A stretch of 64,000 nt of DNA, taken from contig CAWHLP010000009.1 in the NCBI GenBank assembly GCA_963830205.1, forward strand, positions 28,072 through 92,071, read 5' to 3'. This document shows, piece by piece, positions 12,544 through 49,242 of the stretch. The notes beneath the pieces are model-generated. The model was not told the origin of the DNA. It ran no database searches and worked only from the letters and a program-made list of their open reading frames with translations. Position numbers and translations under genes: made by a program. Origin of the DNA: an uncultured Alphaproteobacteria bacterium (GTDB lineage Bacteria > Pseudomonadota > Alphaproteobacteria > Rhizobiales > Kaistiaceae). Positions within the stretch are counted from its first letter, which is position 1, and each line of letters begins with the position of its first letter.

Positions 12544-13530
12544 ATGGCTGAAGCCGCGCTCGAACAAGCTCCCCTGCCGGACATGAGAATATCCGTGCGC
12601 CAGGTCTTCGGGATCGACACCGATCTCCAAGTGCCGGCCTATTCCGAGCCCGACGAGCATGTGCCGGATACCGATCCGGACTATCTGTTTGACCGCGAAA
12701 CCACGCTTGCGATCCTCGCCGGCTTTGCCCGCAACCGCCGCGTGCTGGTCACCGGCTATCACGGCACCGGCAAGTCGACCCACATCGAGCAGATCGCCGC
12801 CCGGCTCAATTGGCCATGCGTGCGCGTCAATCTCGACAGCCACATCAGCCGTATCGACCTGATCGGCAAGGACGCCATCGTCATCCGCGACGGCATGCAG
12901 GTGACCGAGTTCCGCGACGGCATCCTGCCATGGGCGTTGAAGAACAACATCGCGCTGTGCTTCGACGAGTACGATGCCGGCCGGCCTGACGTGATGTTCG
13001 TCATCCAGCGCGTGCTGGAAGTTTCCGGCCGCCTGACCCTGCTCGACCAGAACAAGGTCATCCGCCCGCACCCGGCCTTCCGCCTGTTCGCCACCGCCAA
13101 CACGGTCGGCCTCGGCGACACCTCCGGCCTCTATCATGGCACCCAGCAGATCAACCAGGGCCAGATGGACCGCTGGTCGATTGTCTCCACCCTCAACTAC
13201 CTGCCGCACGACAACGAGGTGAACATCGTTGCCGCCAAGGTGCCGAGCCACCGCGACGAGAAGGGCCGCGCCATCATCGCCAAGATGGTCCGCGTCGCCG
13301 ACATGACCCGCAACGCCTTCATCAACGGCGACCTGTCGACGGTGATGAGCCCGCGCACGGTGATCACCTGGGCGGAGAACGCCGACATCTTCGGCGACGT
13401 CGGCTTTGCGCTGCGCGTCACCTTCGTCAACAAGTGCGACGAGCTGGAGCGCAGCCTGGTCGCCGAGTTCTACCAGCGCTGCTTCAACGAGGAACTGCCC
13501 GAGTCGACCGCCAATGTGGTGATGACGTGA
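12544..13530 (+). CDS. cobS: Cobaltochelatase subunit CobS (MoxR-like AAA+ ATPase)
   Basis: [28 protein letters not shown]..., Walker [16 protein letters not shown], Walker [17 protein letters not shown] at 12544. Confidence 0.92.
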
Positions 13531-13536
13531 ATGACC

Positions 13537-13770
13537 TCAGCGGGTTTCCTCAAGAGACGCAAGGCGCTTCTCGATCGCCTCCAGCCGCTCTTCGACTTCG
13601 GCAGCGGCGTAGCGCCCGAGCACGCTCTCGCCGTTGAGTGCCTGGCGGATGTCATCCATGCGCGAACTGAGGCCCGTGCAAACTTCCTTCAGTCTGGACG
13701 CGGACATTGCCCTGAATTCCTCGCGAAATTCGCGAAGAATGCGCAAGGTGTGGTTCTCCGGTTCGGCCAT
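13537..13770 (-). CDS. Small coiled-coil hypothetical protein (77 aa)
   Basis: Only the last 77 codons of ORF 13537..14907 lie outside cobT. They read MAEPENHTLRILREFREEFRAMSASRLKEV...EERLEAIEKRLASLEETR, with heptad-like charge pattern. Sits in the cobS-cobT gap. Confidence 0.4.
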   Translation of the reverse strand: MAEPENHTLRILREFREEFRAMSASRLKEVCTGLSSRMDDIRQALNGESVLGRYAAAEVEERLEAIEKRLASLEETR

Positions 13771-36942: not shown

Positions 36943-39900
36943 ATGACCACCCCTCTCAAGGTCACCAACACCAACGACGCGGGCGCCGGCTCGCTGCGCG
37001 CCACCATCGCCGGTGCCAATGCCGGCGACACCATCGAGTTCGACCCGTCCCTCAAGGGACAGACCATCACGCTCACCTCTGGCGAGCTGGCGCTCACCCA
37101 GGACATCACCATCGACGGTGATATCGACGGCGACCACAAGGCCGACATCACCATCTCGGGCGGCGGCAACAGCCGGGTCTTCGACATCAGCGACGGCGCG
37201 AACACGACGATCGCCGCGACGCTCGAGAGCCTCGTCATAACGGACGGCAGCATCACAGGCAGCGGCGGCGGCATCTATGTGGGAGCGAACGACAAACTGA
37301 CGCTGATCGACTCGACGGTTTCGGACAACACCGCAACGACTCGGGGCGGCGGCATATTCGGTGCGGTGGGCGCCGGCACCGCGATCACCGTCGTCAACTC
37401 GACCATTGCGGACAACAACAGCGTATACGTATCGGGCGGCGGCATCGCGGCCGGGTCCTACGCAGCCATCACGTTGGTCAACGCGACCGTCTCGGGCAAC
37501 AGCGCCGGCGGCTCGGGCGGTGGCATCTACGGATTTCAGTTCAACGCAATTGCACTCTACAATTCTACCGTGACCGGCAACTATGCCGTTAGCACGGCCG
37601 GCGGCATCTACAACGACGGCACGACCGGGGTGACGACGCTGGGCAACTCCATCGTCGCTGGCAATGCCGCCCACACAAGTGGCAACGATCTCTACGGCGG
37701 CGGCACCCCCAGCGCGTTCGTGCTCTCGGGCAGCAACATCATCGGCTCGGCGCCGGTCAATTTCGCATCGACCTTGGGGCCGGCCGCGACGCAGATCGAC
37801 GGCACCAGCCAGACCGCCCTGGAGACGGTGTTCGCCTCGGTTGCGAACGATCCGCATTCCGGCGTGCTCTCGGGCGTTCTCGGCAACAATGGCGGGCCGA
37901 CCAAGACCGTTGCCATCGCGCCCGACGGGATTGCCGACGGCGCCGGCTACACCGGTGCGCTGCCCACCGAAGCGGACCTCGGCGTCGACGTGAATGGCAA
38001 CGGCACCATCGAGTCGGCGGCGATCTCGGTCGACCAGACGGGCAACGCGCGCGTCCAGGGCGGGCTCGACATCGGTGCCTATGAGGTCGCCGGCCCGGTA
38101 GTGACCACCAACAGCGACAGCGGCGCCGACCAGGGGTTCGCCGGCTCATTGGCCGCCGATGCTGCCGACGGCGGCGGGCTTAGCCTGCGCGAGGCGATCC
38201 ATTGGGCGCAAGCAGGCGACACAATCACCTTCGATTCGTCCCTGAAGGGACAGACCATCACCTTGTTGGCCGGCCAGTTGACGCTGGCCCAGGACCTGAC
38301 CATCGACGGCGACGTCAACGGCGACCACAAGGCCGACATCACCATCTCGGGCAACGATGCTAGCCGTATCTTCAACATCGGCAACTCGGGCACGGACGTC
38401 ACGCTTCACAGCCTGACGCTGACCCACGGCCGTGTTTCAGGGGGCCTTAATTTCTCTTACTCCGGTGGAGCGATCTCTGCCGTGGACGGTACGTCGCTCA
38501 ATATTGTCGACAGCTCGATCACCGACAGCTATGCGTCCGCCTCCGGCGGCGGAATTTCTAGCAACGGCTTGCTGAGCATCGCGAACTCGACGGTCTCGGG
38601 CAATATCGGGTATTACGGCGGCGGTATCAGCGTTGCCGGGCTTGGCTCCGCCTCCTATCTCTCCAACGTCACCGTCAGCGGGAATTTCGGGGAACATGGC
38701 GGCGGCATCGCGACCGCATCCGTCGTGAAGCTCTACGACAGTACGCTCGCAGGCAATACGGCGGTCGACGGCGGGGGCCTCGATTTCTTCGTCGGTTCGA
38801 CGGTGACCGTCATCAATACGGTCGTTGCCGGCAACTCGGCCAGTGGCGCCGGCATCGACATTGCGGTCGACGGCGGCAGCGGCATCGGCACACTGCGAGC
38901 TGGTGCCAGCTTCCTGGGCTCGGCGGTCGGTATCGCCAGTTCCGCCACGTATGCCTTCACCGATTACGGCATAAATCAGCTTGCCGCCGGCAATCCGCTG
39001 CTTGGGCCGCTGGGCGATCACGGCGGCACCGTCCAGACGATGGGCATCCTGGCTGGCAGCCCGCTGATCGGAGCGGGCTACGGCCATTCTCCGGCACTGC
39101 CCGTCGATTATCTCGACGTCGATCATGACGGCAACACCGCCGAGCTGCTGCCGATCGACGCCAACGGCAACCCGCGCGTTCAGGGCGTCCTCGATATCGG
39201 CGCCACCCAGTTCACCGGCCAGCCGCAGTTCTTCATGAGCGGCGACTTCAACGGCGACGGCATCGACGACATGGCCTGGCGCAGCCGTTCGAGCGGCTAC
39301 GTCGCCACCTGGCTGCTAAACAGCAGTACCCACCGGACGTTGGTTCATCCAAGCAATGCCACCACCGACTGGGAGGCGCTCGCCCCCGGCGACTATAACG
39401 GCGACGGCATCGATGACATCGCTTGGCGCAACACCTCGACCGGCTATGTGTCGGTGTGGCTGATGGACAGCAACGGCCACCGGCACGCCGTCCATTCCGG
39501 CGACGCCAGCAGCGCCTGGGAGGCGCTCGCCCCCGGCGACTTCAACGGCGACGGCATCGATGACATCGCCTGGCGCAACAGTTCGACCGGCTATGTGTCT
39601 GTCTGGCTGATGGACAAGAACGGCCACCGGCACGTCGTCCATTCCGGCGATGCCAGCAGCGCCTGGCAGGCGCTCGCCCCCGGTGACTACAACGGCGACG
39701 GCATCGACGACATCGCCTGGCGCAACAGTTCGACCGGCTATGTGTCTCTCTGGCTGATGGACAAGAACGGCCACCGGCACGTCGTCCATCCCAGCGACGC
39801 CACCAGCGACTGGCAGGCGCTTGCCCCCGGCGACTACAACGGCGACGGCATTACCGACATCGCCTGGCGCAACACCTCGACCGGCTATGTGTCGGTGTGG

Positions 39901-40266
39901 CTGATGGACAAGAACGGCCACCGGCACGCCGTCCATTCCGGCGATGCCGGCAGCGACTGGCAGGCGCTCGGCTCCGGCGACTACAACGGCGACGGCATCG
40001 ACGACATGGCCTGGCGCAACACCGCGACCGGCTATGTGTCGGTGTGGCTGATGGACAAGAACGGCAAGCGGCACTTCGTCCATTCCGGCGACGCCACCGC
40101 CGACTGGCAGGCGCTCTCGCCCGGTGACTACAACGGCGACGGGATTACCGACATCGCCTGGCGCAACACGTCGACCGGCTATGTGTCGGTGTGGCAGATG
40201 GACAAGAACGCCCATCGCCACGTCGTCCATCCCAGCGATGCCCCCAACATCTGGCAAGCGGTCTGA
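36943..40266 (+). CDS. Large repeat protein 1: two CSLREA/choice-of-anchor-Q-like parallel beta-helix modules + C-terminal seven-blade FG-GAP/VCBS-like propeller
   Basis: 1107 aa. Module starts TNTNDAGAGSLRATIAGANAGDTIEFDPSLKGQTITL and TTNSDSG...GGLSLREAIHWAQAGDTITFDSSLKGQTITL. NST/NAT..GN.A..GGGI rungs. Each module ends LLGPLGDHGGTVQTM..GSPLIGAG. Then 7 x 49-aa GDYNGDGIDDIAWRN.STGYVSVWLMD.NGHRH repeats. No N-terminal signal peptide. Confidence 0.85.
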   Translation: MTTPLKVTNTNDAGAGSLRATIAGANAGDTIEFDPSLKGQTITLTSGELALTQDITIDGDIDGDHKADITISGGGNSRVFDISDGANTTIAATLESLVITDGSITGSGGGIYVGANDKLTLIDSTVSDNTATTRGGGIFGAVGAGTAITVVNSTIADNNSVYVSGGGIAAGSYAAITLVNATVSGNSAGGSGGGIYGFQFNAIALYNSTVTGNYAVSTAGGIYNDGTTGVTTLGNSIVAGNAAHTSGNDLYGGGTPSAFVLSGSNIIGSAPVNFASTLGPAATQIDGTSQTALETVFASVANDPHSGVLSGVLGNNGGPTKTVAIAPDGIADGAGYTGALPTEADLGVDVNGNGTIESAAISVDQTGNARVQGGLDIGAYEVAGPVVTTNSDSGADQGFAGSLAADAADGGGLSLREAIHWAQAGDTITFDSSLKGQTITLLAGQLTLAQDLTIDGDVNGDHKADITISGNDASRIFNIGNSGTDVTLHSLTLTHGRVSGGLNFSYSGGAISAVDGTSLNIVDSSITDSYASASGGGISSNGLLSIANSTVSGNIGYYGGGISVAGLGSASYLSNVTVSGNFGEHGGGIATASVVKLYDSTLAGNTAVDGGGLDFFVGSTVTVINTVVAGNSASGAGIDIAVDGGSGIGTLRAGASFLGSAVGIASSATYAFTDYGINQLAAGNPLLGPLGDHGGTVQTMGILAGSPLIGAGYGHSPALPVDYLDVDHDGNTAELLPIDANGNPRVQGVLDIGATQFTGQPQFFMSGDFNGDGIDDMAWRSRSSGYVATWLLNSSTHRTLVHPSNATTDWEALAPGDYNGDGIDDIAWRNTSTGYVSVWLMDSNGHRHAVHSGDASSAWEALAPGDFNGDGIDDIAWRNSSTGYVSVWLMDKNGHRHVVHSGDASSAWQALAPGDYNGDGIDDIAWRNSSTGYVSLWLMDKNGHRHVVHPSDATSDWQALAPGDYNGDGITDIAWRNTSTGYVSVWLMDKNGHRHAVHSGDAGSDWQALGSGDYNGDGIDDMAWRNTATGYVSVWLMDKNGKRHFVHSGDATADWQALSPGDYNGDGITDIAWRNTSTGYVSVWQMDKNAHRHVVHPSDAPNIWQAV
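39241..40263 (+). repeat. Seven tandem 147-bp coding repeats (propeller blades) in gene 1
   Basis: Blade unit GD(Y/F)NGDGI(D/T)D(I/M)AWRN(T/S)(S/A)TGYVS(V/L)WLMD(K/S)NGHRH.VH(S/P)(G/S)DA...W(Q/E)AL.P counted seven times. The last copy is two codons short. Confidence 0.9.
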
Positions 40267-40400
40267 GGGGCACCGCCGGAAAAACGGCACGCAAACGCCC
40301 CTCCGCGCATACGCCCGGACAGCACGGCGCCGCTCTCGCCGCAACTTCTTGGCGCAGCGGCGGAAGCTGCGCACGGCTTCGGTCGCCACCGCGCGCCGCG

Positions 40401-40428
40401 TTGACAACCGACGCTGGCAATGCACAAT
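40401..40428 (+). promoter_or_regulatory. Promoter candidate for giant repeat-protein gene 2 (copy of 36634)
   Basis: TTGACA (40401-40406), 16 nt, CACAAT (40423-40428). Flanking ~85 nt are nearly identical to the copy upstream of gene 1. Confidence 0.4.
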
Positions 40429-40718
40429 CTCCAGTTATGAATTGATAAAATTCCGAAGAGTTGGGGCCGGCCGAAGGGCGACCGGTATCGGAACCCAACG
40501 CCAAGCCGAAATTGCGCCGGCATCCTGCGGGACGCGGCACAGCTTTGATCGCCCCACGCCTTGATTGGTCGCGTGGGCGAATTGGAACGGTGCACTTTTC
40601 GGTGCTGAGTCGCGAGCACCGGCGCAGACGATTTCACACGAATACCATTCGCTGAAGCGGTCGAGCGATCTGAGCCCGGAATCCGACCGACGCAACAGCT
40701 TCCTGGAGGACGAGTGTG

Positions 40719-40883
40719 ATGACCCTGCCCACTATCCGGACTGTCACCAAAACCGCCGACTCCGACATCGCCTGGCGGCGCAGTTCGGGCCGTGCCGTCG
40801 CCATCTGGCGGATCAAGAGCGCCGACCAGATCGGCCCCTCCGGCAGTCCCGGCAGCCTCGGCACCACATGGAGCGCCATCTGA
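40719..40883 (+). CDS. Possible 54-aa ORF encoding a single degenerate propeller-blade-like module
   Basis: GGAGGA 8 nt before ATG 40719. MTLPTIRTVTKTADSDIAWRRSSGRAVAIWRIKSADQIGPSGSPGSLGTTWSAI echoes the blade consensus DIAWRNSSTGYVSVWLMD...W.AL. Below the ORF-track size cutoff. Confidence 0.25.
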   Translation: MTLPTIRTVTKTADSDIAWRRSSGRAVAIWRIKSADQIGPSGSPGSLGTTWSAI

Positions 40884-40956
40884 AGCGGACACCAGGACAG
40901 ATACTTCGAACCAACGCCAGCTACGCACAACCCAACCCAGGAGGGGGATAGGCATC

Positions 40957-43900
40957 ATGACCGTCGCGATTACCGTCACTAATACCAATGATCATGGCGA
41001 CGGCTCGCTGCGCCAGGCGATCCTCGACGCCACTGCCGGCGAGACCATCGAGTTCGACCCGTCCCTCAAGGGCAAGACCATCACGCTCACATCGGGCCAG
41101 CTCATGCTGTACCAGGACGTCACGATCATTGGTGACGTCGACAACGACGGCAAGGCGGACATCACCATCTCCGGCGATGCCAATCACAGCGGCACGGCCA
41201 ATTCCGGCGACAGCCGCATCTTTCTCATCAACTACGCTGGTACCGATGTCGAACTCGACAGCCTGACGCTGACCGGAGGATACAGCTACGTCGGTGGCGC
41301 AATCGCCGCGTACAACGGCACGAGCCTCACACTCATCAACAGCACCATCTCCGGGAACACCGCGTCCGCAGGCGCCGGCGGCATTTTCATGCTGCCCAAC
41401 ACCGTGCTCACCGTCGAGAACTCGACCATCTCGGGCAATGCCGCGCCCATCGGCGGCGGCCTCGTCATCGAAGGAACGGCCACTCTCACCAACGTCACCA
41501 TGACCGGGAATACCGCCACCGGTCACGATGGTGGGGCCATCGAAACGACCCAAGCGACGGTGACCATCCTCGACAGCACGATCGTGGGCAACACCGCTCA
41601 CCAGTATGGCGGGGGCATCAACCTCGCCGTGGCCTCGTCCCTGACCATCTCCAATTCGGTGGTTGCGAACAACACGGCCAGCACCGGTCCCGACATCGGC
41701 GACACAACCGGCAACAACACGATCGTCGCCGGATACGACTTCTTTGGCACCGACGTCTCAGGGATTGCCGGCTTCACCAGCAACGGCAGCAACTTCCTCA
41801 ACGCCGGCGACCCCAGGCTGGGGCCGCTCGGTGACCATGGCGGCCCGGTCAAGACCATGGTGCCTCTCGCCAACAGTCCGCTGGTCGACGCGGGATTGGC
41901 CGGGCTGTTGCCCACCGATGCGCTGGATATCGATCACGACGGGAACTACGACGAAAGACTGCCGCTCGACGCCAACGGCAAACCCCGCGTCCAGGGCGCG
42001 CTCGATATCGGCGCCGTGGAGGTCGGCGGCCCGGTGGTGACCACCAATAGCGACACCGGTGTGGACAAGGTGATTGGCACTTCTTTCGCCGCCGATGTCG
42101 CCGACGGCAGCGGCCTCAGCCTGCGCGAGGCGCTCGCATGGGCCGCGCAGGGCGACACCATCACCTTCGCTTCGTCGCTCAAGGGCCAGACCATCAGGCT
42201 GATCGGCGGCCAACTGAATTTGACCCGCGACGTCACCATCGATGGCGACGTCAACGGCGACCACAAGGCCGACATCACCATCTCCGGCGATGCCAACAAC
42301 AGCGGCACTGCCAACGCCGGCGACAGCCGCATCTTCAACGTCGGCAACGACCTCGACGTCGGGCTCGCCAGCCTGACGCTGACCAACGGCTATACCACCG
42401 GCAGCGGCGGCGCGATGTATGTCGGGGCTGGGACGACGCTGCTCCTCGCCGACAGCACCATCACACGGAGCGTCGCCGGCCTTGGGGGCGCAATCGCTAC
42501 CAAAGGCGACCTGTTCATCGGCAATTCGACGATCGCGAACAATTCGGCAGGCAGTGGCGGCGGCATCGACATCACGGCCACGGGTACTGCCACCATCGTT
42601 AACGCCACCATCACTGGGAACACTGCCACATACTTTGGCGGCGGCATCGAGACCAACACCAGCATTCTCTACATCCACAGCAGCACGATCGTCGGCAATC
42701 ACTCTGGCGGCTACAGCGGCGGCATCGATCTCTTCCATGGCTCGTTGTCGAACATCTTCAATACGGTCGTCGCCGGCAATACGGCGGCGTCGGGGCCCCC
42801 CGACGTCGGCGATTCAGGCGGCGGCTACAATGCGCTGCTAGTCGCGGCCAGTTTCTTCGGCACTGACGTTTCCGGGTTGCCCCACTTCACGGACAACGGC
42901 GGCAACATCAACAACGGCGGCAATCCACTGCTCGGTCCGTTGGGCGACCATGGCGGCAGCGTCAAGACTATGGACATCCTCAACGGCAGCCCGCTGATCG
43001 ACGGCGGCGATGCGAGCTGGCTGCCCGTCGACCTGCTCGACGTCGATCACGACGGCAACACGGCGGAGAGGCTACCCGTCGACGCCAACGGCAATCCGCG
43101 CACCCAGGGCGTCCTCGACATCGGCGCCACCCAGTTCGTCGCCGAGCCGCAGTTCTTCATCAGCGGCGACTTCAACGGCGACGGCATCGACGACATAGCC
43201 TGGCGCAATCGTTCGAGCGGATACGTGTCCGCCTGGCTGATGGACAAGAACGCCCACCGCCACGCCGTCCATCCGAGCAACGCCACCAGCGACTGGGAGG
43301 CGCTCAGCCCCGGCGACTACAACGGCGACGGCATCGACGACATCGCCTGGCGCAATACGTCGAGCGGCTATGTGTCGGTGTGGCTGATGGACAAGAACGG
43401 CAATCGGCACGCCGTCCATTCCGGCGACGCCAGCAGCGCCTGGCAGGCGCTCGCCCCCGGCGACTTCAACGGCGACGGGATTACCGACATCGCTTGGCGC
43501 AACAGTTCGACCGGCTATGTGTCCGTCTGGCTGATGGACAGCAACGGCCACCGGCACGTTGTCCATTCCGGCGACGCCACCAGCGCCTGGCAGGCGCTCG
43601 CCCCCGGCGACTACAACGGCGACGGCATTACCGACATCGCCTGGCGCAACACGTCGACCGGCTACGTGTCTGTCTGGCTGATGGACAGCAACGGCCACCG
43701 GCACGTCGTCCATCCCAGCGACGCCACCAGAGGCTGGGAGGCGCTTGCCCCCGGCGACTATAACGGCGACGGCATTACCGACATCGCCTGGCGCAACACC
43801 GCGACCGGCTATGTGTCTCTCTGGCTGATGGACAAGAACGGCCACCGGCACGCCGTCCATTCCGGCGACGCCGGCGGCGGCTGGCAGGCGCTCGGCTCCG

Positions 43901-44190
43901 GCGACTACAATGGCGACGGCATCGACGACATGGCCTGGCGCAACACCGCGACCGGCTACGTGTCGGTGTGGCTGATGGACAAGAACGGCAAGCGGCACTT
44001 CGTCCACTCCGGCGATGCCACCGCCGACTGGCAGGCGCTCTCGCCCGGCGACTACAACGGCGACGGGATTACCGACATCGCCTGGCGCAACACGTCGACC
44101 GGCTATGTGTCGGTGTGGCAGATGGACAAGAACGCCCATCGCCACGTCGTCCATCCCAGCGATGCCACCAACATCTGGCAGGCCGTCTGA
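40957..44190 (+). CDS. Large repeat protein 2 (paralog of 36943..40266): two beta-helix modules + seven-blade propeller
   Basis: ATG 40957 after [52 protein letters not shown]. Second module ...[32 protein letters not shown]. Same [10 protein letters not shown]..KTM endings and 7 x 49-aa blades. No signal peptide. Confidence 0.85.
   Translation: [1077 protein letters not shown]
43165..44187 (+). repeat. Seven tandem 147-bp coding repeats (propeller blades) in gene 2
   Basis: Same unit and the same array length (1023 nt) as 39241-40263. The last two blades are almost identical at DNA level between the two genes. Confidence 0.9.
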
Positions 44191-44506: not shown

Positions 44507-45295
44507 TCAGAGCAAAGGTCGTTCCACAAACGCTGCCGCCAACCGCGACCGGTTGTGTGCCAAGTCGTCCGCCGATACCTGCCCGGCGATTCCGGCCAGA
44601 TACTGCGACCAGCGTTCCGTCAGGTCGGCCGCAACGAGGTCGCGGCCCATTGTCAGGTCGGTGCTGAATTCCCTCCATCGCTGAATATTGTGCGCTTGTT
44701 CGGCCTCGCTGGCCTCGCCCCCGTAGCCGCTTATGTGCTGCGTACCGGTGTCCCACCGGTAGATATACGAGGTGCGACCGCCAAGATCGGTCGTGGCAAG
44801 CAGCCCCGCCTCCTCGATCTGCATCATGACGGGATGATCGGTGTATAGCGGATGGGTATCGATCGGAGCGTGCCGCACATATTCGGCCCGGAGAAGCCAC
44901 GAGGGTTCGAGGCGATTGGCGATGCGGCTGAAGGTTGTATTTCGCTCTGAAAACCACGCGGTCGCCGGCTTCCAGGCCATCTTGGTACCGATGTTCTCGA
45001 GGCAATCCTCCAGGTGCCAGGGCAGACACAGATCGTCGTCATCCCACCAATGAATGAAATCGGCGCTCGGATCGGCCAACTCAACCATCCTCTGCTTGAT
45101 GTATCGCAGGGGTTGGGGACCACACTGCTCGTTCACCACCCGGACGCGCGGATGTGTGAAGTTCAGCTCCTGGGGGTGCTGGTTGTAGATCAGCAGCGTC
45201 GCGTTCGACAGCGCCGACTGCGCCAGAAAGCAGGCCAACGCTTCGCTCGCCAGGCCGTGACGGCCGTAGGTCCCCATCAGGCAGTCTATCCGCAT
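44507..45295 (-). CDS. Small glycosyltransferase (GT2-like fold)
   Basis: 262 aa. CLMGTYGRHGLASEALACFLAQS resembles the GT-A N-terminal motif (P-TYNR...l.S.l.Q). Acidic cluster HWWDDDDL. Last gene of the minus-strand unit with the kinase-GT fusion. Confidence 0.65.
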   Translation of the reverse strand: MRIDCLMGTYGRHGLASEALACFLAQSALSNATLLIYNQHPQELNFTHPRVRVVNEQCGPQPLRYIKQRMVELADPSADFIHWWDDDDLCLPWHLEDCLENIGTKMAWKPATAWFSERNTTFSRIANRLEPSWLLRAEYVRHAPIDTHPLYTDHPVMMQIEEAGLLATTDLGGRTSYIYRWDTGTQHISGYGGEASEAEQAHNIQRWREFSTDLTMGRDLVAADLTERWSQYLAGIAGQVSADDLAHNRSRLAAAFVERPLL

Positions 45296-45353
45296 AAGTC
45301 TCGCCCCCGATGCGACCGCACTTCTGCGGGCTCACTCGTCCGCCAGCGTGCTG

Positions 45354-47207
45354 TCATTTCGATCCCGCGGGCGTGACGGATTGCACGACGGGATCGTTCT
45401 CGACGGCCGCGACAATGCGCTTCCCAACCTCCTCCCCGAGGTGCTCCTTGAAGTGTTCTCCGATCGGGGCGGTGTCCCATCCGATCTCACGGAACCCGAT
45501 GAAGTAATTGCGAATACGGTCCTCCCAAACGTTGCGGTAGGGGATGCCCATCGGCCGATTGAAGCGGTGAACCCACCTGAGAAAGGGGGCGCACAGCACG
45601 CGTCCGCCGCGCAGCCGGAACTTCTCGTGGATGTACCCTTCCTCGCCGCCGAAGCCGTGAAAGAGCGGGTTGAAGCCCGGCCAGGCGGCGCGCCGGCAGG
45701 CAAACAGACCCAGGCCCTGCATGGGAATTTCAAACGGAGGCGTCTCGGCGTCCGCTGCCGCCTCGTCGACCTCCCATCGTCCGTACATTCCGGATCTCCA
45801 GCCTGGGGAGAAATGGCTCGAGAATGTCTTGAGGCCGTCATAGAGGAGCGGTCCCTGGATCAGGTCTTTGGACTGCGGGTTCCCGGCGAAGTAGGCCATC
45901 AGGCGCGCGATGGCGCCCGGCGCAATCAGCACATGGCAGTCAATGCAAAGGACAAATTCGCCGCTCGCCTCGGTAAAGACGAAGTCGCGGACCGCGGTGC
46001 CTTTCACCTCGGTATTCGGAATATATCGCAGGTTCGGAATCCAGTACTCAAGCGCATACAGCGCCTCGCCGCACGGGCCATCCGGATTGTTGTCCACGAC
46101 GACGAACTCAACGTCCTCAAGGACCTCGGGATGATACATGCGGATGGCCTGGATGGTGAAATAGACGCCATCGTAGTCATCGTAGGTCGCCATCCCGATG
46201 GTCAGTCTCGGCGCAACGTCCGGCTTGGGTCGGAGCGGCGGGCGGGCTTTGGGAATCGCGGCCGGCACCGCCGTTGTGCTCTGCGTCTGGCTCGCTTGCG
46301 CTTGCGCCGCCGCGGTGTCGGTGGCCGCCGCGAAGGCAGCGAACAGGTCGCGCGTCGCGCCCGCATCGAAATTCTGCGCAACGGCCAGCCTGACCAGTCT
46401 GTCGAGAATGCCCTCGAACTGATCGAACCCGCCGTGCGTGACTTCGATGGCGGGAACGCTGCCGGCCAGGCCCTTGAGGAGGTCCAGCCCGTGGTCGGCC
46501 ATGTTGCGCGCGTTGAGGTTGCACTCCATGAGGCGCATCAGGGTCCGGGCCGCCGTCAGCGGTTCGATGCGGAGCTGGGCCGCCTCGACGAAGCGCGGAA
46601 AAACGATGAGACCCGCCTGCTGCGATTGCGATCTGGCGTCCGGAATGGTGATCGCCATGCCGGCTCCTGTGGCCACGGCCGTCGCGTGGATGCTGTCCGC
46701 AAGCAGACTGACGAGCCTGTCCTGCTGCGACTTGGTCAGCAGTGGCCGCGGAAAGGTGACCGTGTTGCGGCCCCCGGTCGCAATGACAATCTCGTCGGAA
46801 AGGAAGGAGAAACCGCGCGCGGCGAACCAGCCCGCCATCGTCGTCTTCCCCGCACCCGTGGGGCCAGCGATCAGGATGGCGCGATTGTCCCAGGCGACCG
46901 CGGCGGCGTGGAGCGCGACGGCATCGTCGACGTCGGTGATGAGGCTGCGCACGACCTGGTCGAGCGCCACATCGAGCGCCAGTTCGGCGCTCGCCCCCCG
47001 CACAACCGGTCGACGATCGACCTGAACGGAGTAGAGCCCCTCGCCATCGTCGCCGATGACGATGAAATGCGATGGCGGCTTCGACGACTCGACGGGACCG
47101 TAGATCAGGTCGACACGGGCCTTCAGGTCATCCGGAAACGTCAGCGCAGACGTGACGTTTCGCAGATCGATCAGGCGCGTGTGCAATTGGCCCTGCGAAC
47201 CGATCAA
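45354..47207 (-). CDS. Fusion protein: HPr-kinase-C-like (HprK-related) P-loop kinase domain + family-2 glycosyltransferase domain
   Basis: N-half LHAAAVAWDNRAILIAGPTGAGKTTMAGWFAARGFSFLSDEIV. An Ala/Thr/Gln/Pro linker. C-half RLTIGMATYDDYDGVYFTIQAI...VEFVVVDNNPDG...FVLCIDCHVL. TTG start 3 nt after the stop of the poly-Thr ORF. Confidence 0.8.
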   Translation of the reverse strand: MIGSQGQLHTRLIDLRNVTSALTFPDDLKARVDLIYGPVESSKPPSHFIVIGDDGEGLYSVQVDRRPVVRGASAELALDVALDQVVRSLITDVDDAVALHAAAVAWDNRAILIAGPTGAGKTTMAGWFAARGFSFLSDEIVIATGGRNTVTFPRPLLTKSQQDRLVSLLADSIHATAVATGAGMAITIPDARSQSQQAGLIVFPRFVEAAQLRIEPLTAARTLMRLMECNLNARNMADHGLDLLKGLAGSVPAIEVTHGGFDQFEGILDRLVRLAVAQNFDAGATRDLFAAFAAATDTAAAQAQASQTQSTTAVPAAIPKARPPLRPKPDVAPRLTIGMATYDDYDGVYFTIQAIRMYHPEVLEDVEFVVVDNNPDGPCGEALYALEYWIPNLRYIPNTEVKGTAVRDFVFTEASGEFVLCIDCHVLIAPGAIARLMAYFAGNPQSKDLIQGPLLYDGLKTFSSHFSPGWRSGMYGRWEVDEAAADAETPPFEIPMQGLGLFACRRAAWPGFNPLFHGFGGEEGYIHEKFRLRGGRVLCAPFLRWVHRFNRPMGIPYRNVWEDRIRNYFIGFREIGWDTAPIGEHFKEHLGEEVGKRIVAAVENDPVVQSVTPAGSK

Positions 47208-47210
47208 GGA

Positions 47211-47597
47211 TCAGGTGTTGGTGGTGGTGGTGGTAGTCGTGGCCGTTGTCACAGTTGTCGAGACCGTGGTCGTGGCGGTTGTGGTCGGCGTCGTCGTGAC
47301 CGTGGTCGTGGCGGTTGTGGTCGGCGTCGTGGTGGCGGTGGTCGTGGCGGTGGTCGTGGCGGTTGTGGTCGGCGTCGTGGTAGCGGTCGTGGTCGCAGTT
47401 GAAGTCGTGGCGGTTGTGGTCGCCGTCGTAGTTGTGCCCGTCGTCGTGCCGGTTGTTGTGGTCGTGTCGAGCGGTGACGCTGCGGCATGCGCGGGGACGA
47501 CGACCCACTCGACAACGGGCTTTTTCCACGCTGCCGGCAGCAGTGCGGCCGATACCGAACCCGCCAGTACAACCAACAATGCTCGACGAGTGGACAT
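47211..47597 (-). CDS. Poly-threonine protein (128 aa): 44-aa N-terminal leader/signal-like region + 84-aa tail that is ~75% Thr
   Basis: ATG 47597 preceded by GGGAG. MSTRRALLVVLAGSVSAALLPAAW (RR + hydrophobic stretch)...PAHAAASPLD, then (TTTX)n with X=A/P/V/G; 63 Thr in 84 residues by my count. Stop is 3 nt before the kinase-GT ORF. Caveat: all frames are open across this repeat. Confidence 0.55.
   Translation of the reverse strand: MSTRRALLVVLAGSVSAALLPAAWKKPVVEWVVVPAHAAASPLDTTTTTGTTTGTTTTATTTATTSTATTTATTTPTTTATTTATTTATTTPTTTATTTVTTTPTTTATTTVSTTVTTATTTTTTTNT
47214..47465. repeat. Imperfect tandem DNA repeats encoding the poly-Thr tract
   Basis: A 33-nt string gaccgtggtcgtggcggttgtggtcggcgtcgt occurs at 47262 and again at 47298 (36-bp period). 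Its 27-nt core recurs at 47352. The whole tract is (GGT/CGT/GGC/TGT)n on the plus strand. Confidence 0.85.
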
Positions 47598-47701
47598 GGA
47601 ATCTCCCAATCCAAGGTGGTCCCGATGCGCCTAGACTGCGCCACGTCTGTCAGCGACGCAAGCCTCCGGCGCAGCATGTTTGTTGACGGTTTTGGCCAGG
47701 A

Positions 47702-48937
47702 ATGGAAAGACATTGGGCCCGGTTCGGTTCGCCTGCGATGACGTCGTCCGACCAGACCTTTGATCTCTTCGGTTCCCTGCTCGGCGAGCTTGGAAGCGGT
47801 GCTGCGTTGCCGGCAAGCAGCAACGACCCGTTCCGAGACCAAATGCGCATCGCCGATCTGATGTGGGAACATGTTCCGGACCAGGCTCACTATCACGGCG
47901 TCGCCCGACTGGTCATGCCGGCCATTGTGCGGCTCGCCGCCGCAACGCAGTCGCCGCGCGCGGCCACCGCACGGCGCAGGCTCACGGCAATTGTTCATCG
48001 GCAGAATGCGGCGGTCGACGCGCGCGAGGAGGCGGTCAGCATCCTGTTGACCGCCATGAAGTCGGCTGGAATACGATTGGTTCTTCTGAAGGGTGCCGCA
48101 CTCGCCCACCTCATATACAAGGCACCCGAGGATCGCCCCTCGCTCGACATCGACGTGCTGGTCGACCGCGAAAACATCGTAGCGGCCGCAAGGGTCGCGG
48201 AGTCTATCGGCTACGTGTTCGCGGATGGGTACGCGTCGGCGTTCACCCCGACCAAGCACCATCTTCCCGAGGCAGCCATATGGACACAGGGCTTCCGCAT
48301 TGCGCTGGAAATCCACGTCGATGCGATGTCTCCCACCCGGCGAGAGCACCTTACGCTCGAGGACCTGAGCGGCCCGCTGCAGGAGGTTGCCCGGACTGGT
48401 GGACCATCGGGTCTGGCGCTTGGACACTTCGACATGCTGCGCCACCTCGCCCACCACACATTCGAGCCGAGCCAGAGGGTACGACTGGTCCACCTCTTTG
48501 ACCTGTGGCGCTATGGTATGCTCCATCTGGACTCGGTCGGTTTGGGTGTCCCCCCTCGCCAGCTTCGGCACATTCGCGTGGCGCACGACCTCGTCGGACT
48601 GGTGTTCAAGGGACCTCAGCCGTCCCCGCAATATCCAATTCCAGCCGGCGTCGGGGAGGGCTTGCTTCCGTTTACGAGCATCGGCCGCGATGCAGACGGT
48701 TTGTGGGTGCGCGCCAGGTTGCTGTTCGCGCCGTCCGAGTGGTGGCTCAGAGGCTTCTACGGCATCCCCCCGGGGCGCTCTCTCGCTGGCGCAACCCTCG
48801 TCCGCCACCCCTTGAACATTGTAGGCTGGGTTATCTCCCGGTACGTCGCAAGGATCAGGCGCATGTTCCGGCGGAACCGGGAGAACGTCACCCGACTCCG
48901 CGTAAGCAAAGGAAAGACCATGAAGGTGAGGCTATGA
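47702..48937 (+). CDS. Uncharacterised nucleotidyltransferase family protein (NTP_transf_5-like)
   Basis: IRLVLLKGAALAHLIYKAPEDRPSLDIDVLVDRENIVAAARVAESIGYVF matches the family hallmark (LKG...Y....R...DIDLLV). Start could also be ATG 47738. Confidence 0.78.
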   Translation: MERHWARFGSPAMTSSDQTFDLFGSLLGELGSGAALPASSNDPFRDQMRIADLMWEHVPDQAHYHGVARLVMPAIVRLAAATQSPRAATARRRLTAIVHRQNAAVDAREEAVSILLTAMKSAGIRLVLLKGAALAHLIYKAPEDRPSLDIDVLVDRENIVAAARVAESIGYVFADGYASAFTPTKHHLPEAAIWTQGFRIALEIHVDAMSPTRREHLTLEDLSGPLQEVARTGGPSGLALGHFDMLRHLAHHTFEPSQRVRLVHLFDLWRYGMLHLDSVGLGVPPRQLRHIRVAHDLVGLVFKGPQPSPQYPIPAGVGEGLLPFTSIGRDADGLWVRARLLFAPSEWWLRGFYGIPPGRSLAGATLVRHPLNIVGWVISRYVARIRRMFRRNRENVTRLRVSKGKTMKVRL

Positions 48938-49242
48938 TGGATGAGGCCCGTTTGTTGGATATCCCTCAGCGGGTCGCCGGCGTGCGCGAGGATCAGGTGG
49001 AGGGCGAGTTGCTCGTTTACCTGCCCGAAGCCACCCGCGCGGTCTTTCTCAACGGTCCCGCCGCAACAATCTGGGGTCTCTGCGACGGATCGCGCACGCT
49101 CGCATCGATGGTCGAACTCCTGGCGGAGTCCTACCCCGAAGCTGCCGACAATCTGGGTGCGGACGTGGTCGAGACAATCGATCAGCTTCGCGCCGCCGGC
49201 ATCATCACGCCAAAGTCAGATCATCTGCCGATCGGCGCCTAG
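48934..49242 (+). CDS. PqqD-family protein (RiPP-recognition-element-like peptide chaperone)
   Basis: 102 aa from ATG 48934 (ATGA overlap with the upstream gene). ELLVYLPEATRAVFLNGPAATIWGLCDGSRTLASMVELLAESYPEAADNLGADVVETIDQLRAAGII fits the PqqD pattern. The stop TAG lies inside the MITE terminal repeat. Confidence 0.8.
   Translation: MMDEARLLDIPQRVAGVREDQVEGELLVYLPEATRAVFLNGPAATIWGLCDGSRTLASMVELLAESYPEAADNLGADVVETIDQLRAAGIITPKSDHLPIGA

Follow-up and report, generated by a model that had tools for sequence, protein, structure and literature searches.

Two bacterial systems in which an HprK-like kinase modifies a leader-bearing precursor are closest to the one considered here. The system for linear polyphosphorylated peptides (LPP) has core genes that encode a SipW-type signal peptidase, a PqqD-family recognition element (RRE) for peptides synthesized ribosomally and modified post-translationally (RiPPs), an HprK-like kinase, an NTP_transf_5 protein of unsolved role and an MsbA-like exporter (Popov et al., Nat Commun 2026, PMC13381572). 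LPP precursors of 35-200 aa combine a leader of the consensus YxxPxVLxHQxIxFET/xxS, in which the slash marks cleavage, with C-termini that vary greatly; in the core, Ser3 is polyphosphorylated by LppK, and capsule and glycosyltransferase genes surround the loci (PMC13381572). In crystal structures the RRE PbaB1 holds W-15/P-12/L-10 of the paeninodin-type leader of PbaA and LppB holds Y-16/P-13/V-11 of LppA, and both LPPs and paeninodins are stated to be restricted to Bacillota (PMC13381572). In lasso peptide pathways the HprK-like kinases PsmK and PadeK (poly)phosphorylate a single Ser, with D158/D159 of PsmK being essential, and PsmN, annotated as an uncharacterized NTP transferase, is required for the hexose on the phospho-Ser of pseudomycoidin and needs D134/D136 (PMC6993621). 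Here, we describe a cluster of five genes at positions 44507-49242 of a 64,000-nt stretch of contig CAWHLP010000009.1 (assembly GCA_963830205.1) from an uncultured alphaproteobacterium of the Kaistiaceae; this whole stretch is referred to as the window. The cluster comprises genes for a threonine-rich precursor, a kinase-glycosyltransferase fusion protein, a second glycosyltransferase, an NTP_transf_5 protein and a PqqD-family protein.

The original prediction could match this cluster to no described pathway. A matching type does exist in the form of LPP (PMC13381572), and we suggest that the cluster carries out the RRE-dependent modification of an exported peptide or small protein, as a Gram-negative counterpart of LPP and of the phospho-glyco tailoring of lasso peptides, a reading to which we give somewhat more credence than doubt. 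In essence, the biosynthetic genes probably phosphorylate and sugar-coat the threonine-rich protein prior to export. The layout of open reading frames (ORFs), the coordinates, the spacing and the Thr content (75% over 84 residues) reported earlier were all correct on recheck, and searches with hidden Markov models (HMMs) supported the four proposed assignments, i.e. kinase (TIGR04352), Glycos_transf_2 (PF00535), NTP_transf_5 (PF14907) and PqqD (PF05402).

The fusion is encoded in 405 GTDB species, out of which 80 loci were retrieved, mostly from Hyphomicrobiales together with Desulfobulbaceae, Arenicellales and others, and the family is present in Alpha-, Gamma- and Deltaproteobacteria. Co-occurrence was counted in the 53 fusion loci with flanks of 4 kb or more on either side. 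PqqD is found in 38 of these loci, NTP_transf_5 in 35 (two subfamilies, always with PqqD), a leader ORF in 33 and the small protein with a GT-A glycosyltransferase fold in 13; leader ORFs are present in 31 of the 38 PqqD loci and, conversely, PqqD in 31 of the 33 loci with a leader ORF. Functionally, the five genes are a conserved unit, and their arrangement recurs in dozens of genomes, far beyond chance. As had been proposed, the poly-Thr ORF is the substrate-type gene in this unit: its N-terminal recognition region is conserved, its C-terminus variable. The expectation that a Thr-rich ORF accompanies the enzymes held next to the fusion, where 60 of 72 precursors have a Thr-rich stretch (some add Cys-rich or Ig-like domains), but not in the wider leader family, where ~10% do (25/256). 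A regular-expression search for divergent precursors in the PqqD loci without a detected precursor gave nothing convincing.

Leader homologues, collected with tblastn and a leader HMM, amount to 72-74 ORFs in ~45 of the 80 loci and are homologous over the first ~42 residues; they usually lie directly upstream of the fusion in one to six tandem copies. Because the leader is conserved at the amino-acid level across phyla, the minus-strand frame is evidently translated, and the poly-Thr ORF is, as judged from these alignments, a real and conserved gene. In the window precursor a twin-arginine motif (T3-R4-R5) is followed by a hydrophobic region, by W24-K-K-P27-V-V29 (positions -15, -12 and -10) and by P35-A-H-A38; the core opens with A-A-S41 (Ser at +3, codon 47475-47477), continues with P-L-D and ends in the Thr-rich tract, which is built from imperfect 36/48-nt tandem repeats and in which 63 of the last 84 residues are Thr. 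Column statistics for 72 homologous ORFs from fusion-encoding loci show RR, W-15, P-12, P-4 and A-1 in all 72, A-3 in 71 and H-2 in 67. The arginines stand in the context [D/T/N]RRx[VLI][LM]K ahead of a Gly/Ala-rich hydrophobic stretch, and the c-region follows the consensus W(-15)-x-K/R-P(-12)-V/I-V/I(-10)-x-x-V-I-x-P(-4)-A-H-A(-1). Cores start with x-x-S/T, position +3 being S or T in 69/72 fusion-adjacent precursors and in 254/255 members of the wider family. This Ser/Thr is the only core feature kept family-wide, the remainder of the core being variable, and it is also kept in cores of 2-12 residues such as AHA/QTTK and AHA/QATGQR.

These motifs suggest that the leader is at once a signal peptide for twin-arginine translocation (Tat) and an RRE-recognized leader. 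The original prediction had regarded the 44-aa N-terminal region as the leader; the RRE-type motif agrees with this, whereas the twin-arginine signal ending in an AxA site had been missed. TIGR01409 (TAT_signal_seq) matches 25 of 36 relatives, and NCBI names some members of the leader family 'twin-arginine translocation signal domain-containing protein'. The A-x-A with its Pro at -4 has the textbook form of a site for signal peptidase I. With the predicted cleavage after P-A-H-A, W-15, P-12 and V/I-10 of the leader fall into the same register as W-15/P-12/L-10 of PbaA, and since this register is that of the RRE-bound paeninodin-type motif, the PqqD-family protein is very probably the recognition element of the precursor. 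The PqqD protein matched none of the models specific to the HprK-related kinase A system, and a search of PDB sequences returned weak matches only, including LppB (9x8z, E 1.7). Two observations on leaders and their surroundings are added here. In Desulfobulbaceae, precursors in tandem (three at L082 1-2468, two at L025 6029-8288, one at L046 6682-8411) are followed by DUF192 and then by a signal peptidase I gene, which is of the bacterial type (TIGR02227, 145 bits) in the three loci. In L071, which has PqqD and NTP_transf_5, a Thr-rich small ORF (13459-13770, minus strand) has a twin-arginine motif within another leader lacking WxxP (SRRATLKRLIGTGAFVAPVVVSFAMADLSIDAFMHAAAANITTTTTTS...).

The kinase part of the 617-aa fusion (residues 91-270) aligns with positions 91-279 of the TIGR04352 profile (HprK_rel_A) at 75.7 bits against a curated cutoff of 200, which rules out membership in this equivalog. 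HprK/P (PDB 1ko7) matches the domain with E 0.006, and LSDE pairs with ADD. Within the Walker A motif (G115-PTGAGK121-TT) and the metal-site pair D138-E139, the residues G120, K121, D138 and E139 are invariant in 24 aligned homologues, the window protein included. In the AlphaFold model of the fusion (mean confidence, pLDDT, 76) two domains are joined by a disordered linker (residues 296-333). The 411-aa NTP_transf_5 protein, of the nucleotidyltransferase fold, falls into the same Pfam family as LppN, its counterpart in LPP, and has an intact LDIDVLV (DxD) motif. Full-length homologues of the fusion number more than 1,384. Many are ~1,050-1,150 aa long and have an extra LicD (PF04991), GT9-like or second GT2 domain (P0008, P0012-P0015, P0020 and others; L036 9779-13243; L049 9863-13150), which suggests additions of phospho-alcohols or further sugars.

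The glycosyltransferase part of the fusion matches Glycos_transf_2 over residues 337-444 and appears, from both sequence and model, to resemble mucin-type polypeptide GalNAc-transferases (GT27) most. With the fusion model as the Foldseek query, the top 32 matches are all polypeptide GalNAc-transferases (E 7e-10 to 2e-8), and a profile of the domain finds ppGalNAc-T10 (2d7i) as its best PDB sequence (E 0.0014). This alignment pairs VVDNNPD with VLVDDFSD, LDCH with LDSH (DxH), GFGGEEGY with IWGGEQYE (the Gal/GalNAc-T motif) and RWVHRF with RVGHIY (the third metal ligand). The corresponding motifs, D372-N, D423-C-H425 (DxH), G520-G-E-E523 and H547, have aligned residues that are invariant in the family, and no other part of the fusion is conserved as strongly as this domain. 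The 262-aa protein had been called a small GT-A-like ORF. It matches no Pfam or NCBIfam HMM, and the assignment is borne out by its AlphaFold model (pLDDT 87), which has a GT-A fold with SpsA, TarP, TarS and RmlT as Foldseek matches (E ~1e-9); its DDDD motif (D85-D-D-D88) is intact, and one of its 281 homologues (P0240) is fused to PqqD.

The original prediction proposed leader-guided poly-phosphorylation and/or glycosylation of Thr. Glycosylation of the Thr-rich tract is plausible, and it gains support because the fused glycosyltransferase is ppGalNAc-T-like; poly-phosphorylation of the tail, in contrast, is not the best-supported chemistry, the conserved feature being the Ser/Thr at +3. Relatives of the fusion with other partners were also seen. 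On a marine-sediment contig (L101, 470-3699), a precursor gene joins the leader to a Thr/Pro-rich stretch and a Gly_rich_2 domain; its neighbor encodes a protein of 767 aa in which PqqD, a GT27-like glycosyltransferase and a second GT2 domain are fused. The GT27-like domain is 56% identical to residues 334-605 of the window fusion, and neither a kinase nor NTP_transf_5 is encoded within 10 kb. A second subtype of fusion locus (L039, L040, L042, L049, L051, L060, L062, L064, L065, L070 and L077, from Labrys, Taklimakanibacter and others) has no PqqD, NTP_transf_5 or leader ORF. Its conserved neighbor is an outer-membrane-protein-like (OMP-like) protein of ~300 aa, which carries a Sec signal, belongs to no Pfam family (e.g. 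L042 11815-12753, minus strand) and mostly ends in a KSLIRRHREDDP- or REREDVAPLW-type motif and a Ser/Thr/Pro-rich tail, the copy in L065 being cut by the contig end. Because such tails recur in this subtype, Ser/Thr-rich tails lie next to the fusion in two unrelated substrate architectures.

Combining the gene set, domains and motifs with their conservation and co-occurrence, we infer the following chemistry and order of steps: (i) the 38-aa leader would be a Tat signal peptide, the c-region of which is bound through WxxPxV by PqqD in the cytoplasm, (ii) PqqD would present the bound precursor to the fusion, the HprK-like domain of which would use ATP to phosphorylate Ser41 (+3), possibly repeatedly, (iii) the NTP_transf_5 protein would elaborate the phosphate on Ser41, cf. 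PsmN and its hexose, (iv) the ppGalNAc-T-like GT-A domain and the second GT-A protein would attach O-linked sugars and elongate them, the Thr tract being the most probable site, and (v) the bulky product would be exported by Tat and cut by signal peptidase I after Ala-His-Ala, giving a phospho-glycopeptide in the envelope or the medium. In its most extended form, the proposal is that of a very widespread pathway of Gram-negative bacteria, where a Tat signal doubles, through its c-region, as a lasso-type RRE leader and the kinase-ppGalNAc-T-like fusion and its partners build a mucin-like phospho-O-glycopeptide or glycoprotein in the cytoplasm for Tat export and release by signal peptidase I. 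This extended form we advance tentatively, since the evidence leaves us doubtful about it as a whole.

Alternatively, the system may only glycosylate and make a bacterial mucin, the GT27-like domain and the second GT-A protein acting on the Thr-rich tract by O-glycosylation. The HprK-like domain would then be a nucleotide-binding scaffold or a sugar kinase (cf. POMK, which acts on O-mannose), and NTP_transf_5 would make or transfer a phospho-sugar. The strong conservation and ppGalNAc-T likeness of the glycosyltransferase domain would fit such a system, as would the enrichment of Thr-rich stretches in fusion-adjacent precursors over the wider family, the Ser/Thr-rich tails of the OMP-like proteins in the subtype lacking an RRE, the RRE-glycosyltransferase fusion of L101 that occurs without any kinase, and the degenerate P-loops of some relatives. 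However, none of the 24 aligned homologues departs from the Walker A Lys or the D-E pair, every characterized relative of this kinase type phosphorylates a peptide Ser, and S/T is kept at +3 in 99% of cores, including the shortest ones that have no Thr tract. We therefore regard glycosylation alone as unlikely and favor phosphorylation at +3 combined with glycosylation.

The wider leader family bears on a further alternative. A leader profile recovered 4,892 representatives (clusters at 50% identity) from 1.84 billion proteins, and many members are 150-345 aa long and carry unrelated cargo (Cys-rich beta, Hint and Gly-rich domains). The poly-Thr core is a lineage-typical cargo and not the defining substrate, and the leader seems to act like a general modification or sorting tag, as do Nif11/NHLP-type leaders or sorting signals. 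Sampled leader genes are often far from enzyme genes (L083-L086 and 49 of 50 metagenome loci, mostly on short contigs), and one metagenome-assembled genome has its enzymes (L041) and its precursors (L082) on separate contigs. Within one lineage, a leader of ~55 aa that is ~90% identical, MTDKKSxESRRKLLKSIAAGSGAIVAGKSLPESWSRPVVDSVMLPAHAQTSP, was observed before unrelated cargo of 100-300 aa (P0362-P0506, e.g. P0461 and P0390). Leader genes in L083-L086 and L089-L138 are frequently orphans with no modification enzyme within 8-10 kb, those in L084 and L085 lying near unrelated GT2/GT4 or sugar-modifying genes. The leader could accordingly be imagined as a non-cleaved signal anchor or sorting tag, in which the modified Ser/Thr by AHA tethers the cargo to an envelope polymer or lipid and the Thr tract is a spacer; the system would then sort proteins and not yield a secreted peptide. 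Nearly identical leaders on unrelated cargo encoded by genes scattered in genomes, a conservation that reaches exactly to +1 to +4, and the location of LPP loci in capsule loci speak for this idea. It is nevertheless improbable to our minds, given that A-x-A with Pro at -4 is a classical signal peptidase I site, that in Desulfobulbaceae the precursors are followed by signal peptidase I genes of their own and that cores of 2-8 residues would be pointless as cargo.

That the neighborhood is coincidental, the enzymes belonging to an exopolysaccharide or lipopolysaccharide pathway and the poly-Thr ORF being an unrelated Tat-secreted low-complexity protein or spurious, can practically be set aside: polysaccharide loci often contain GT2-type enzymes, sugar-nucleotide epimerases or dehydratases are found in some related loci and a collection of 15 billion predicted proteins lacks the exact 128-aa protein, but PqqD accompanies the leader ORF in nearly all loci that have one, leader conservation across phyla shows translation, PqqD is fused to both types of glycosyltransferase in relatives, and no polysaccharide polymerase, flippase or export gene is conserved near the fusion across the loci. 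Transporter and protease genes are not conserved there either.

Several points weigh against an RRE-guided phospho-glycopeptide pathway. For the family as a whole the proposal is founded on sequences and structural models. The kinase domain scores well under the curated HprK_rel_A cutoff, P-loops are degenerate in a few relatives, and the variant in L101 without kinase and NTP_transf_5 indicates that phosphorylation is not obligatory in the wider family. LppN had no detectable activity in a heterologous host (PMC13381572). Foldseek favors GT27 over generic GT2 by only ~10-30-fold in E-value, and the window precursor (TRRALLV) is below the TIGR01409 threshold. Lastly, leader genes are often dispersed and carry large folded cargo, as expected for a protein-sorting or modification tag more than for a classical RiPP.

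The features of the cluster are listed in the table below.

Features of the cluster and their positions in the window (aa, amino acids)
Feature	Position	Strand	Details
Precursor gene	47211..47597	-	128 aa + stop; ATG 47597, stop 47211-47213; 38-aa leader + 90-aa core
Leader, precursor residues 1-38 (predicted)	47484..47597	-	Column statistics on 72 homologues
Core, precursor residues 39-128 (predicted)	47214..47483	-	Starts A-A-S41
HprK-like P-loop kinase domain of 617-aa fusion, ~residues 1-295	46323..47207	-	TIGR04352 E 3e-21
GT-A domain of fusion, residues 334-617 + stop	45354..46208	-	PF00535 E 7e-8
Stand-alone GT-A glycosyltransferase, 262 aa	44507..45295	-	AlphaFold model
NTP_transf_5 protein, 411 aa	47702..48937	+	PF14907 E 2e-24
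PqqD-family RRE, 102 aa	48934..49242	+	PF05402 E 1e-13
Divergent intergenic region, 104 bp, between precursor operon and NTP_transf_5/PqqD operon	47598..47701	no strand	Gene layout

A Shine-Dalgarno sequence (GGGAGA) lies 6-11 nt 5' of the precursor ATG. The fusion ORF (45354-47207) starts with TTG at 47207, 3 nt from the precursor stop, and is separated by 58 nt from the 262-aa ORF. The NTP_transf_5 ORF starts divergently, 104 nt from the precursor ATG, and the PqqD gene is translationally coupled to it by an ATGA overlap. Both promoters are presumably located in the divergent region; a scan for the sigma-70 consensus found no match there, and the promoter and terminator scans gave no information. 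Opposite the poly-Thr gene, a 160-aa poly-Val ORF (47152-47634, plus strand) with gene-like GC content at third codon positions (GC3) could mislead gene callers. It was rejected as a gene, being an artefact of ACC/ACG codon repeats, with conserved homologues only for the minus-strand frame.

A Pfam survey of the ~46 predicted genes of the window identified SecA, AccA, an XerD-type integrase, AroK/AroB, CobS/CobT, CarD and transporters. As the original prediction had noted, it contained no Asn_synthase-type lasso cyclase, transglutaminase-like peptidase, radical-SAM or YcaO protein; peptidase S26 was likewise not among these genes, and the sole ABC genes are Liv-type uptake components at least 6 kb from the cluster. 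Directly upstream of the cluster, tandem paralogous genes (36943-40266 and 40792-44190, plus strand) encode giant proteins of 1107 and ~1078-1132 aa, each with an N-terminal beta-helix-like repeat region and C-terminal FG-GAP/W_rich_C repeats. As partners of the cluster these proteins (36943-44190) were rejected, tblastn having matched them in 0 of the 80 related loci, and they are not part of the unit. GC3 is 0.71-0.85 for genes at ~28000-51000, the cluster included, versus 0.83-0.95 in the flanks, and overall GC falls to 0.58-0.62 at 30-36 kb of the window; the stretch of low GC3 may reflect horizontal acquisition.

The family would extend the logic of LPP to Proteobacteria, with at least 405 species encoding the fusion and ~4,900 leader clusters. 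The kinase-glycosyltransferase fusion, together with the RRE-glycosyltransferase fusions in relatives, provides a direct genetic argument for phospho-glycopeptide end products. If a signal peptide doubles as RRE-binding leader, RiPP-type substrate recognition would be coupled to the proofreading and export of Tat, and a ppGalNAc-T-like enzyme beside Thr-rich tandem repeats could serve as a bacterial system in which dense mucin-type O-glycosylation is readily studied, and possibly as a tool for it. Abundant soil and sediment bacteria may have these products in their matrix or envelope. If the extended form of the proposal is correct, the system would be the first RiPP-like one with a Tat leader, mucin-type (GT27-like) O-glycosylation would have its first analogue in bacteria, and hundreds of unrelated cargo proteins would be tagged via one conserved Ser/Thr beside the cleavage site. 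Our literature search found no account of this family in Proteobacteria, of Tat-type leaders in RiPPs or of a fusion between a kinase and a ppGalNAc-T-like enzyme.

How the system compares with known ones can be seen feature by feature. The Cys-stabilized helical hairpin core, double-glycine leader and C39-peptidase ABC exporter of SunS-type glycocins are absent from the precursor and the window. Readings as a lasso peptide, sactipeptide or YcaO system were rejected because the window has no cyclase, B2 peptidase, radical-SAM or YcaO gene. Paeninodin and pseudomycoidin nonetheless share with the present system an RRE motif of the same register (W-15xxP-12xL-10 there, W-15xxP-12xV-10 here) and a kinase and nucleotidyltransferase with equivalent motifs (here GPTGAGKTT, LSDE and LDIDVLV), but lasso precursors have no signal peptide and are phosphorylated on the C-terminal Ser instead of at +3, and lasso macrolactam synthetase and B2 peptidase are neither present here nor conserved in related loci. 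The HprK-related kinase A family (TIGR04352) is catalogued with a PqqD protein and a nucleotidyltransferase. The original prediction had referred to such a trio, and the kinase domain of the window is indeed related, TIGR04352 being its best NCBIfam match, but as a relative below the cutoff only. To our knowledge the definition of that system includes neither a glycosyltransferase fusion nor a Tat-leader precursor.

GT27 polypeptide GalNAc-transferases initiate mucin-type O-glycosylation in animals and Toxoplasma. The fused domain shares with them a GT-A architecture with DxH in place of DxD, the GGE motif and the downstream His, and it has a predicted Thr/Pro-rich tandem-repeat substrate encoded next to it. 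Identity is only ~15-20%, however, the ricin-type lectin domain is lacking as the fusion ends after the GT-A domain, and the enzyme here would be cytoplasmic and is fused to a kinase. A few RiPPs are known whose leaders are Sec or lipoprotein signals (bufferins, PMC11626156, PMC13056109). Bufferins and lipidated MNIO peptides combine housekeeping export and cleavage by signal peptidase with unusually long cores and no dedicated exporter or protease (PMC11626156, PMC13056109), as the present system would; they differ in having Sec or lipoprotein signals instead of a Tat-type signal and in their MNIO oxidation chemistry. Moreover, the signal peptide of bufferin is dispensable for modification, whereas in the present system the RRE motif lies within the c-region of the signal.

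LPP remains the closest match. The differences are that LPP has a SipW-type peptidase (TIGR02228) and an MsbA-like exporter, neither of which is found here, no SipW-type or S26 peptidase being conserved across the 80 loci; that the LPP leader has no twin-arginine signal and that the rest of its consensus (VLxHQxIxFET) is not shared; that the LPP kinase is not fused to a glycosyltransferase, whereas the kinase here is a domain of a fusion; and that LPP was reported as restricted to Bacillota and has no described Thr-rich mucin-like cores, whereas this family occurs in Proteobacteria. The roles of the LPP peptidase and exporter are plausibly taken by signal peptidase I and Tat, and the signal peptidase I genes adjacent to precursors in Desulfobulbaceae have their parallel in the peptidase dedicated to LPP. 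Of the five LPP core families three are shared, i.e. a discrete PqqD RRE, an HprK-like kinase and NTP_transf_5 (the same Pfam families for PqqD and NTP_transf_5, the LPP supplement scoring the RRE as Pfam PqqD). One to several precursors have a conserved leader and variable C-termini, and [Y/W]xxPxV lies 15-16 residues before cleavage, the register of this family being one residue off that of LppA. In both, the setting includes glycosyltransferases, the leader is removed by a cut of the type I signal peptidase type (predicted here), and the S/T at +3 occupies the position phosphorylated by LppK. Judged by sequence, the system appears to share with LPP the logic of an RRE, an HprK-like kinase and NTP_transf_5, and what appears to be new is the type of leader, the mode of export and processing, and the fused glycosyltransferase that resembles mucin-type enzymes.

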